A stretch of DNA of 64,000 bases from Candidatus Aenigmatarchaeota archaeon (GTDB taxonomy: Archaea > Aenigmatarchaeota > Aenigmatarchaeia > CG10238-14), in NCBI GenBank assembly GCA_018920365.1, contig JAHLMM010000001.1, positions 274,165-338,164 of the forward strand, written 5' to 3'. The notes beneath the pieces are model-generated. The model searched no databases and was not told the DNA's origin. It saw only the letters and a program-made list of their open reading frames with translations. Shown here piece by piece: positions 61,644 through 62,256 of the stretch. The position numbers and the translations under genes were made by a program. The stretch's first letter is position 1, and the number at the start of each line of letters is the position of its first letter.

Positions 61644-62156
61644 TTAAGCTATACTCTTTAAATCTGATTTTAAGCTTTCTATTTGCTTTCTCAATTCATC
61701 AAGGACATTATCTATTTCTTTTTCTGGTTGTTGTTCTGTCTTTTTGCTTTCATACACACCTGGTTTTGTCAATTCTCTATCTAAAAACATTATCTTTTCT
61801 TCAAGCTTGTTGATAGAGTCTTCAAGAAGCTTTCTGTTTTCATTTACAAGAATCTCTATCTGTCTTTGCACAGCCAAAGTATTTTTAGCAAAAAATAAAA
61901 CTGATTTAATGTCATTTGTTATATCCAGTATATCTTTATATTTGTCTAGTTTTACAAAAAGAGGAACGCTTGGCTCTTCAACTCTTATCTGTTCAGACTC
62001 TTCATATTCTTGTTTTACGTCTTCTTTCTCAGGTTCTATTATCTGCTTTATTTGTTCAGCATTTATTGTTTCTTCCTTTTTTTTCTTTAGAATAACCATA
62101 GCTTTCAATAAATAGTATGAAATTTTGTTAATTAAAGTTTTTGTTGAAGAATGCAC
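61644..62156 (-). CDS. Coiled-coil protein (170 aa)
   Basis: Charged and heptad-rich, with no catalytic motif. Confidence 0.35.
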   Translation of the reverse strand: MHSSTKTLINKISYYLLKAMVILKKKKEETINAEQIKQIIEPEKEDVKQEYEESEQIRVEEPSVPLFVKLDKYKDILDITNDIKSVLFFAKNTLAVQRQIEILVNENRKLLEDSINKLEEKIMFLDRELTKPGVYESKKTEQQPEKEIDNVLDELRKQIESLKSDLKSIA

Positions 62157-62256
62157 TGGGCGGGATTTGAACCCGCGCCGCGACCGATCTGCTAGCCTGA
62201 TTGGCAGGGTTCTACGCTTTTGCTTCGTATCCTAGACCAGGCTAGACTACCAGTGC
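62152..62256 (-). tRNA. Intron-containing tRNA, isotype unresolved
   Basis: Acceptor GCACTGG/CCAGTGC-A, D-arm GTCT-AGCCTGGTCTA-GGAT, and T-arm GCGGG-TTCAAAT-CCCGC. The 105-nt length implies a roughly 30-nt intron. An 8-bp helix (ctagcctg with caggctag) joins the D-loop region to the insert. Confidence 0.65.

Follow-up and report, generated by a model that had tools for sequence, protein, structure and literature searches.

The minus strand of the window (the whole 64-kb stretch of DNA that was analysed) carries, from position 62256 to 62152, a tRNA-Gly(GCC) gene that is interrupted by two 15-nt introns. The complete gene (62152..62256) is 105 nt long with no encoded CCA, as delimited by in-silico splicing and by comparison with 15 distinct positional orthologues. 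Positions within it are given here as g, where g = 62257 - window coordinate. Exon 1 (62225..62256, g1-32) supplies the 5' strand of the acceptor stem, U8 and A9, the D-arm, A26 and positions 27-29 of the anticodon stem (CGA). It is followed by intron 1, AGCAAAAGCGUAGAA (62210..62224, g33-47), which lies at position 29/30 in the 5' strand of the anticodon stem. Exon 2, CCCUGCCA (62202..62209, g48-55), contributes positions 30-31 of the anticodon stem and positions 32-37 of the loop, among them the anticodon GCC, and intron 2, AUCAGGCUAGCAGAU (62187..62201, g56-70), occupies position 37/38. Exon 3 (62152..62186, g71-105) comprises C38, the 3' strand of the anticodon stem (GGUCG), a 4-nt variable loop, the T-arm, the 3' strand of the acceptor stem and A73. 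The host is a tiny archaeon from a hot spring and belongs to a little-studied lineage.

Much of a tRNA can be read directly from the raw sequence. The first-pass annotation of this DNA had noted a clear acceptor stem and T-arm, and both were confirmed on the minus strand: a 7-bp acceptor stem (GCACUGG/CCAGUGC) with the discriminator A73, and a T-arm (GCGGG-UUCAAAU-CCCGC) with the GUUCRANYC signature. A canonical D-arm (GUCU-AGCCUGGUCUA-GGAU) with A14 and G18G19 is also present, a point that the annotation did not contain. The raw genomic sequence lacks an anticodon arm of five contiguous base pairs and a 7-nt loop bearing U33 and R37; such an arm appears only after removal of g33-47 and g56-70. 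When these two segments were excised in silico, ARAGORN returned a canonical 75-nt tRNA-Gly(gcc) with a 5-bp anticodon stem (CGACC/GGUCG) and the loop CUGCCAC. We enumerated all one- and two-segment excisions and found no alternative with U33, R37 and a sensible isotype. As the first-pass annotation had observed, the gene contains no CUUCG complement to CGAAG; CTTCG is created solely by an artificial excision, at the point where the two ends meet. The isotype had been considered unassignable, but the spliced gene reads Gly(GCC). The identity elements of archaeal/eukaryal-type tRNA-Gly are the anticodon GCC (C35, C36), A73 and C2:G71. All of these nucleotides are present and they are invariant across 10 aligned orthologues.

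The bulge-helix-bulge (BHB) splice motif predicted for intron 1 is an alternative fold of the h-B-H-B-h' type. It has a 4-bp outer helix h (g23-26/g49-52), a central helix H (g27-30/g42-45; A.G, U:A, A:U, C:G), two bulges of 3 nt each (GA|A and AA|C) and a 2-bp inner helix h' (GC-loop-GC), and thus at least the 2 bp that the strict hBHBh' motif demands of each of its outer helices. The intron itself consists of the h' hairpin GC-AAAA-GC, the 3' strand of H (GUAG) and the AA of the 3' bulge. The predicted junction is CGA|CC. The orthologues L009/L012 and L013, which lack intron 1, read ACGA|CCCUGCCA without interruption; their contiguous sequence ...ACGACCCUGCCA... includes GAUACGACCCUGCCA, identical to the predicted intron-1 junction. 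The boundary of intron 1 is therefore fixed to the base by the intron-less orthologues, and the comparison of related genes that had been proposed for locating the exon boundaries gave the junction. In 10 of the 13 two-intron lineages, H consists of 3 bp and the A.G mismatch; in L015, L016 and L022 the mismatch is replaced by A:U, which results in the full 4 bp. The intron-1 loop is variable (10 variants, 3-13 nt), in contrast to GC/GC and GUAG/GUAU, which are retained; the distance is 0.60 for the loop and 0.09 for the stem, H strand and bulge.

We considered two other placements of the intron-1 cuts. The local hairpin UACG(g28-31)/CGUA(g41-44) noted in the first pass does exist, but only three of its four base pairs belong to the splice motif. 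If it were the central helix, the cuts would fall after g33 and g46 and the stem strand would become CGAAACC, which is contradicted by L009 and L013. Cuts after g31 and g46 would yield the identical product but with poor pairing in H (2/4), and this placement was rejected as well. Intron 1 ends in GUAGAA at its 3' side, as does the canonical intron of the two orthologues without intron 1. This could hint that intron 1 arose as a copy of the canonical intron; we do not press the point, since the identity is mostly forced by pairing to similar exon strands.

ARAGORN recognises a 15-nt intron 2 after excision of intron 1. The central helix of intron 2 pairs CUGC (positions 32-35) with GCAG (g50-53/g65-68), its outer helix is the anticodon stem itself, and the bulges CA|A and AU|C predict the junction CCA|C; GCAG is thus the 3' strand of H, and the AU that follows belongs to the 3' bulge. 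The inner helix h' has 0-2 bp among the orthologues, and the window copy has U57:A64 only. Since this helix is nearly missing and falls short of the strict minimum of 2 bp for h', intron 2 is best described as a relaxed hBH/BHL-like motif, which an endonuclease of strict specificity would probably be unable to cut. No EndA-like ORF was detected in the 64-kb window by phmmer, although the approximate M. jannaschii query made this a weak test; the top weak match was an Oxidored_q6 protein. The pairing of H with CUGC is preserved in 14/15 orthologues, in some via G.U, the exception being L007 (U.U). The GCAG/GUAG variation (G:C vs G.U) is a one-sided change. A further hairpin in exon 2 and intron 2, CCUG/CAGG (g49-52/g58-61), was discarded as it is broken in L005, L006 and L014. 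Taken together with the orthologues, in-silico splicing bears out the earlier suggestion of an intron-containing tRNA. That suggestion had placed the intron at a non-canonical site, possibly with more than one intron; there are indeed two, one of them at 29/30, but the other is at the ordinary 37/38.

The 15 distinct positional orthologues come from Candidatus Aenigmatarchaeota (DPANN) MAGs and metagenome contigs. Both introns are found at identical sites in 13 of them and the canonical intron alone in two (L009/L012 and L013), so that the series offers a clean presence/absence contrast for a non-canonical intron inside one lineage. Intron lengths are 12-17 nt with one of 24 nt, and exon 2 is unchanged in 15/15. 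When the cloverleaf and the intron-2 motif were imposed on the alignment, 98.6% of cells were paired. Upstream of the gene, an A/T box, TTAAAAATTATT (62279..62290, minus strand), lies at -34..-23 and at the same upstream distance in most orthologues. The region -20..-1 diverges among orthologues, whereas the A/T box stays recognisable, and we infer that it is a putative TATA/BRE-like promoter element. This conserved box, the conservation of the gene and its compensatory changes provide indirect support for expression of the spliced tRNA.

Standard tools overlook this gene. ARAGORN in default mode called no tRNA at the locus, and the Rfam tRNA model (RF00005) returned nothing at its gathering score in the window; a scan of a 301-nt region gave no tRNA hit on this copy either. 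With permissive filters, the sole match in the window copy was the 18-nt T-arm, and the miss of this copy may be a filter effect. The same model scores the orthologues L005, L006, L007 and L014 at 41-43 bits, aligning the acceptor stem, the D-arm, CGA/UCG and the T-arm while skipping the interior, which is 38-40 nt as shown for L007 and L014; exon 1 is exactly the part that it aligns in these orthologues. L009/L012 and L013, without intron 1, are matched at 49-51 bits. A canonical covariance-model fold of the raw sequence, which the first-pass annotation had named as evidence against its own proposal, was looked for and none was obtained. If this is the sole Gly(GCC) gene, the genome would seem to lack tRNA-Gly(GCC) when searched by the default finders (ARAGORN without intron mode, and the Rfam model in the window). 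The tRNA sets of some DPANN lineages are reported to be incompletely predicted (PMC5829648), and short introns in the 5' strand of the anticodon stem, as in this locus and its tRNA-Leu(CAA) neighbour, are one reason for it.

Intron-mode prediction, which had been proposed as a check, did call an intron, but the call was a tRNA-Ala(agc) with a single 28-nt intron, and the neighbouring tRNA-Leu gene was likewise miscalled as Asp(gtc); both calls were discarded as artefacts. Although a tRNA-Ala(AGC) is what ARAGORN -i returns from the raw sequence, this reading has almost no chance of being correct. It requires an 8-bp acceptor stem that takes in flanking bases, it leaves A.G and A.A mismatches in the anticodon stem, and its insertion site at 34/35 has no BHB. 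The intron-less orthologues refute this reading by giving the anticodon loop CUGCCAC. There is no G3:U70, the pair being A:U or G:C, and the window already contains a tRNA-Ala(GGC). To our knowledge, alanine tRNAs with A34 are not used in archaea. A class II tRNA whose long variable arm absorbs the extra bases was also rejected, for no stem is possible. It is improbable that the second intron lies at 38/39 (g57-71, loop CUGCCAA) instead of 37/38. Its excision likewise yields a 5-bp stem, U33 and R37, but the BHB geometry fits only 37/38, with CUGC/GCAG, the bulges CA|A and AU|C, and G72 opening the outer helix. Furthermore, C71 is invariant while g69-70 vary (AU, AA, CA), which fits an exonic C38. 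The failure of the default finders might suggest a decayed pseudogene, or a tRNA-like remnant that has ceased to yield a functional tRNA, and decay in orthologues had been raised in the first pass as a possible refutation. The orthologues instead show conservation: the exons are near-invariant, with a distance of 0.023 over the 15 distinct orthologues vs 0.39-0.55 for the flanks, and the splice motifs and the upstream A/T box are conserved. Three acceptor-stem pairs are changed on both sides (8 cells altogether), and these compensatory changes led us to dismiss the pseudogene reading. With a spliced product that is a perfect cloverleaf with the Gly identity nucleotides, decay is largely refuted and very improbable. 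We conclude, with a probability of roughly 0.87, that the locus is a functional tRNA-Gly(GCC) gene of Candidatus Aenigmatarchaeota with two 15-nt introns of BHB type that would be removed by protein-dependent splicing.

The gene also contains a long-range helix. The perfect 8-bp complementarity between CUAGCCUG (g12-19) and CAGGCUAG (g58-65) that had caught attention initially was confirmed, and a scan found it to be the longest Watson-Crick helix in the gene. It lengthens to 10 bp via G20.U57 and U21:A56, with a 5' arm at 62236..62245 (g12-21, minus strand) in D-stem positions 12-13 and the D-loop, and a 3' arm at 62192..62201 (g56-65, minus strand) that is the first 10 nt of intron 2. The first-pass annotation took this pairing for the splicing motif. 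It is not one, as the motifs are the other exon-intron helices at g27-30/g42-45 and g50-53/g65-68; it could at most extend the intron-1 motif as an accessory element. The long-range helix and the intron-2 motif (BHB-2) exclude each other. The minimum free energy fold contains the helix (-42.4 kcal/mol, z = -3.19) and none of 200 shuffles was as stable.

We explored the possibility that the helix serves splicing. Folding predictions suggest an order of events, since the long-range helix stabilises the weak BHB of intron 1 (BHB-1). The predicted local energy of BHB-1 alone is -1.0/+4.3 kcal/mol at 37/70 C, and with the helix it is -17.6/-4.1. For BHB-2, the predicted values are -2.1/+2.3 kcal/mol at 37/70 C before removal of intron 1 and -9.1/-1.8 after, and its outer helix goes from 2 bp to a contiguous 5 bp. 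The two motifs are mutually incompatible, as both use g49-53. In four of the six lineages tested, the native intron 2 lifts the ensemble probability of helix h1 at 37 C to 0.50-0.97, against 0.01-0.18 otherwise. In the proposed model, the 10-bp helix would release the 3' strand of the D-stem and support the weak intron-1 motif by stacking beneath its outer helix. Intron 1 is inferred to leave first, with the splicing endonuclease cutting after the second nucleotide of each bulge. Removal of intron 1 would then complete the anticodon stem required by the intron-2 motif, and an RNA ligase would join the exons to give the 75-nt tRNA. The canonical intron would thus be a cis-acting folding helper for the non-canonical one, with an obligatory order of intron 1, refolding and intron 2. 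We regard this as a tentative model that is rather unlikely to hold in full. These energies are only indicative, since the nearest-neighbour model misses the cloverleaf even for the mature tRNA.

We slightly favour the view that the helix has no function and is a by-product of the shared ancestry of a recently fixed intron, with the two introns spliced independently in either order. There is no compensatory change in the helix among the orthologues, and none is possible, as the D-loop is invariant. Five of its ten pairs are unpaired in some orthologues; L006/L018, L005 and L014 have lost distal-end pairs. In L007 complementarity is down to 4 bp and the helix has all but disappeared, yet intron 1 is retained. 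The helix competes with the D-stem and with BHB-2. Even after removal of intron 1, the helix conformer is predicted to be 6.6 kcal/mol more stable than the cloverleaf with BHB-2, so that it might act as a folding trap instead of assisting. Moreover, the contrast between lineages with and without intron 1 rests on only two intron-1-less lineages, which are also the most divergent orthologues. Other observations do not sit well with a helix devoid of function. At least 8 Watson-Crick bp to any exon arose in just 0.4% of 20,000 shuffles of insert 2, and at 70 C BHB-1 is predicted to be unstable by itself. The intron-2 positions g61-64 are invariant in 12/13 two-intron lineages; their distance of 0.115 is like that of splice-motif nucleotides, vs 0.39-0.60 for neutral proxies, the change-saturated intron-1 loop and flanks, and BHB-2 alone gives no reason for it. 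The full CAGGCUAG is found with both types of acceptor stem, and A59G in L025 still pairs, as G.U. A helper role would explain purifying selection on these "loop" bases of intron 2, and the pairing between the intron and the D-arm is possibly functional. If the model is correct, this would be an archaeal tRNA intron with a sequence-specific role in the maturation of its own pre-tRNA. If the helix promotes the weak ectopic motif, it would constitute a concrete case of two tRNA introns cooperating and of selection on an intron interior.

A close comparison is the neighbouring tRNA-Leu(CAA) gene (61490-61613, minus strand), which has a 40-nt intron at 30/31 and is conserved in the same orthologous loci. 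As in the Gly gene, the intron is non-canonical and interrupts the same strand of the anticodon stem, one position further on; its central helix is formed by positions 25-28 and the 3' end of the intron. The Leu gene differs in lacking an intron at 37/38: its only intron is longer (33-40 nt), and the 4 bp of H are perfect. Among orthologues this H shows exon-intron covariation, A27:U (CGAU/GUCG) vs G27:C (CGGU/GCCG), indicating that the host must process intron sites in this stem strand. Another neighbour is an eIF2-alpha ORF, for which the annotated start is an ATG downstream of a TTG.

Genes with multiple tRNA introns, canonical and non-canonical with BHB motifs, have been described in Thermoproteales and other Crenarchaeota, Nanoarchaeum equitans, Methanopyrus kandleri, Korarchaeum and ARMAN-1/2 (PMC4033280, PMC3239211, PMC4090602). 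The present gene shares with them short introns, one at 37/38 and one ectopic in a stem, and the 3-nt bulges around a central exon-intron helix (4 bp, or mostly 3 bp and A.G in intron 1). In both, the non-canonical motif is built at the cost of the cloverleaf, and the genes escape standard finders. It differs in its Aenigmatarchaeota host, for which we found no account of multi-intron tRNA genes in the literature searched, and in that both introns are very short. This kind of gene structure is therefore already known, and the Aenigmatarchaeota locus is an added member.

The nested processing of BHB motifs provides a second comparison. There are archaeal pre-tRNAs whose last BHB forms only once the other introns are removed, and C. 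merolae pre-tRNAs whose ectopic introns leave before the one at 37/38 (PMC3728597). In the Gly gene, too, intron 1 interrupts the outer helix of the canonical motif, which is the anticodon stem, and the predicted stabilities rank intron 1, with the long-range helix, before intron 2. No description of an intron-assisted BHB motif was found in the literature searched, with Sugahara et al. 2007 outside that search. Unlike in nested processing, the canonical intron here would supply a helix strand for the motif of the other intron, sequestering the 5' strand of the D-stem.

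The gene on the minus strand at window positions 62152–62256 is 105 nt long and is numbered here from g1 at its 5′ end. The acceptor and T-arm described in the first-pass annotation could be read from the sequence as a 7-bp acceptor stem (GCACUGG/CCAGUGC) followed by A73 and a canonical T-arm (GCGGG-UUCAAAU-CCCGC), together with a canonical D-arm (GUCU-AGCCUGGUCUA-GGAU). The 51 nt between the D-arm and the T-arm lack a contiguous anticodon arm and, as had been noted, no complement of CGAAG exists in the gene. We enumerated every one- and two-segment removal between the two arms, which yielded 44 mature forms with a 5/5-paired stem. 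Among these, only the CGACC-CUGCCA(C/A)-GGUCG forms combined U33, R37 and a sensible isotype. The in silico excision of g33–47 (AGCAAAAGCGUAGAA, intron 1) and g56–70 (AUCAGGCUAGCAGAU, intron 2) left a 75-nt RNA that ARAGORN recognized as a flawless tRNA-Gly(GCC), with the stem CGACC/GGUCG, the loop CUGCCAC and a variable loop of 4 nt; the isotype previously left unassigned is thus Gly(GCC). We propose, with a probability of about 0.87, that the gene encodes tRNA-Gly(GCC) and contains two introns.

Related genes were collected by three routes. Screening the GTDB species representatives with exon 1 identified four Candidatus Aenigmatarchaeota MAGs, searching metagenomes with a gapped exon pattern added seven contigs, and a search via a conserved upstream 93-aa protein ending in GFGxIFG found 13 further loci. 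The window was matched to contig JAVZBP010000002.1 of the MAG GCA_038999715.1, and an identical gene was also present in a separate Logan assembly. Since all 15 distinct gene sequences lie directly downstream of the same protein gene, they are positional orthologues. Both inserts are found at the same two sites in 13 of the 15. The remaining two (L009, identical to L012, and L013) lack insert 1, read uninterrupted through GAUACGACCCUGCCA, and retain a 12–13-nt insert at tRNA position 37/38. Their sequence is exactly the junction predicted from removing g33–47, so that the comparison of orthologues suggested earlier did fix this exon boundary. The 93-aa protein itself (window 62300–62581, minus strand) had no Pfam match and only eight homologues among 5.8 billion proteins; where named, these are mostly from Aenigmatarchaeota, with one from Woesearchaeota. 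In L013 its stop codon abuts the first tRNA base.

The possibility of a decayed pseudogene had been raised. The mean pairwise distance of the exons is 0.023 in comparison with 0.55 and 0.39 for the downstream and upstream flanks, respectively. Three acceptor-stem pairs are changed on both sides (A:U/G:C, C:G/G:C and G:C/U:A, eight cells in total), and most lineages have a recognisable A/T box, TTAAAAATTATT, around −34 to −23. These patterns of conservation indicate that the locus is a maintained gene, not a pseudogene. In the cloverleaf and the intron-2 motif, 98.6% of the cells are paired.

The archaeal bulge-helix-bulge (BHB) motif consists of a 4-bp central helix (H) and two 3-nt bulges on opposite strands, with helices h and h′ outside, and it is cut after the second bulge nucleotide (PMC3239211, PMC4033280). 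For intron 1, h pairs g23–26 with g49–52 (U.G, A:U, G:C, G:C), H pairs g27–30 with g42–45 (A.G, U:A, A:U, C:G), the bulges are GA|A and AA|C, and h′ (G34:C41, C35:G40) closes a variable loop. This loop has 10 forms of 3–13 nt across the orthologues, with a distance of 0.60, as opposed to 0.09 for the GC/GC stem, H strand and bulge, all of which are retained. The A.G position is A:U in L015, L016 and L022, which fixes the register of H. The hairpin reported previously (UACG/CGUA, g28–31/g41–44) can form; as a central helix, its register predicts a junction contradicted by the intron-less genes. For intron 2, h is the anticodon stem, H pairs C32–C35 (CUGC) with GCAG, and the bulges are CA|A and AU|C in the window and AA|C or CA|C elsewhere. 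The partner strand is GUAG in six lineages, giving G.U, and L007 has U.U. Because h′ has at most 1–2 pairs, intron 2 is, judged by its sequence, a relaxed hBH/BHL-type motif, and relaxed motifs need endonucleases of broadened specificity (PMC3239211, PMC5829648). The earlier suggestion of a non-canonical intron, possibly more than one, holds for the number and for intron 1 at 29/30, but intron 2 is at the canonical 37/38.

The window gene was not called by ARAGORN in default mode and had no match to the Rfam tRNA model at the gathering score; permissive filters gave a T-arm match only. L005, L006, L007 and L014 scored 41–43 bits, and the genes without intron 1 scored 49–51 bits. In the alignments of L007 and L014, the model matched the acceptor stem and both the D- and T-arms, along with three pairs (CGA/UCG) on the outer side of the anticodon stem, and passed over 38–40 nt as a local insertion. 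These alignments support the outer exon boundaries independently, without amounting to a canonical fold. The window, L010, L011 and L015 copies have an identical architecture but were missed by the model, perhaps owing to its filters. ARAGORN in intron mode proposed tRNA-Ala(agc), which was rejected because it needs an 8-bp acceptor stem and two anticodon-stem mismatches and has no G3:U70. This mode miscalls both interrupted genes of the region, as Ala(agc) at 62151–62257 and Asp(gtc) at 61489–61614, each a confident-looking call with an 8-bp acceptor stem and a mismatched anticodon stem.

The complementarity of g12–19 (CUAGCCUG) and g58–65 (CAGGCUAG), reported earlier as 8 bp, is indeed perfect, and a G.U and a U:A extend it to 10 bp. 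The helix joins g12–21 (D-stem positions 12–13 and the D-loop) to g56–65, the first 10 bases of intron 2. This pairing is the main feature of the predicted fold (−42.4 kcal/mol, z = −3.19), and the minimum free energy structure combines it with h of intron 1. When insert 2 was shuffled, at least 8 Watson-Crick bp against the exons arose in only 0.4% of trials. This helix had been taken to form the splicing motif. The splice motifs are other helices, and the long-range helix is not one of them. The D-stem cannot coexist with it, nor can H of intron 2, to which g65 also belongs. The intron-1 motif can, and the long-range helix sits directly below the outer helix of that motif. The longest helix is 10 bp in the window, L010, L011, L015, L016, L022, L027 and L025 (where A59G still pairs as a G.U wobble), 7 bp in L006 and L018, 6 bp in L014, 5 bp in L005, and 4 bp in L007 and in L009 and L013, which lack intron 1; the lengths for L016, L018, L022, L025 and L027 were read by eye from intron-2 sequences. 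There is no compensatory change in the helix among the aligned orthologues because the D-loop is invariant. The GCUA at g61–64 is invariant in 12 of the 13 two-intron lineages, with a distance of 0.115 that is close to those of splice-motif nucleotides, as opposed to 0.60 for the intron-1 loop. This constraint is unexplained by the intron-2 motif alone.

The folding predictions, along with the constraint on g61–64, led us to propose that intron 1 would be removed first, from the alternative fold stabilised by the long-range helix, and intron 2 second, from the cloverleaf. On its own, the intron-1 motif is predicted to be marginal (−1.0 kcal/mol at 37 °C, +4.3 at 70 °C), and with the helix it reaches −17.6 and −4.1 kcal/mol, respectively. 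The ensemble probability of its outer helix at 37 °C rises from 0.01–0.18 with the intron-2 interior scrambled to 0.50–0.97 with the native sequence in the window, L025, L006 and L014, but not in L005 or L007. The intron-2 motif is predicted to change from −2.1 to −9.1 kcal/mol once loss of intron 1 makes the anticodon stem contiguous. A helper role of the helix in splicing is nevertheless doubtful. Compared with the cloverleaf intermediate, the helix conformer is still favoured by a predicted 6.6 kcal/mol; the energy model misses the cloverleaf even when given the mature tRNA; and L007 does without the helix. In L007 (3534–3637), the canonical intron, AUAAUAAGCUGAA, is 13 nt long and divergent and shows almost no D-loop complementarity, yet intron 1 is intact; the contig has a coverage of about 3x. 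Either sequencing errors in this contig or a true departure from the helper model could account for this.

GUAGAA, the hexamer that ends intron 1 (window 62210–62215), also ends the canonical intron in L009 and L013, and its GUAG is a suboptimal partner at either site, giving A.G in intron 1 and G.U in intron 2. The shared hexamer may be a trace of intron 1 having been copied from the canonical intron, which would resemble the intron transposition proposed for Thermoproteales. Convergence on the preferences of the enzyme is an equally plausible explanation.

Other features were observed in the window. The sequence AAAAACTTTAATTAA, at about 62127–62141 (minus strand) and 11–25 nt downstream of the tRNA-Gly gene, is conserved in many orthologues and lies about 30 nt upstream of the likely ATG (62099) of the next ORF. 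It probably serves that gene as its TATA box, in which case the mRNA would be leaderless or have a very short leader. A mechanical 170-aa ORF (61644–62156) overlaps the tRNA only due to an upstream GTG; the annotated product has 154 aa. An archaeal SRP RNA (Rfam RF01857, 135 bits) at 13862–14137 (minus strand) has a G+C content of 56% versus about 33% in the profiled tRNA region (58000–64000).

The neighbouring gene at 61490–61613 (minus strand) encodes tRNA-Leu(CAA) and is interrupted by just one intron, of 40 nt (61543–61582), at the non-canonical position 30/31; its in silico splicing gives an 84-nt Leu(caa) by ARAGORN. Its central helix pairs CGAU (positions 25–28) with GUCG. Across orthologues, exon position 27 covaries with the intron, and the stem pair 27:43 covaries as well (A:U versus G:C in both cases). 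The intron also contains UUGAGC, the complement of GCUCAA in the anticodon loop. This second gene shows that introns at ectopic sites of this stem strand recur in the lineage. We found no paper on tRNA introns specifically in Aenigmatarchaeota in the literature searched; for some DPANN genomes, the prediction of tRNAs is incomplete, a hint that disrupted genes have escaped identification (PMC5829648). Ordered or nested processing of tRNA introns has been described (PMC3728597), and tRNA genes with multiple or ectopic introns occur in Crenarchaeota, especially Thermoproteales, and in N. equitans, M. kandleri, Korarchaeum and ARMAN-1/2 (PMC4033280, PMC3239211, PMC4090602). The two-intron tRNA-Gly(GCC) is a gene of this known kind, here in Aenigmatarchaeota.
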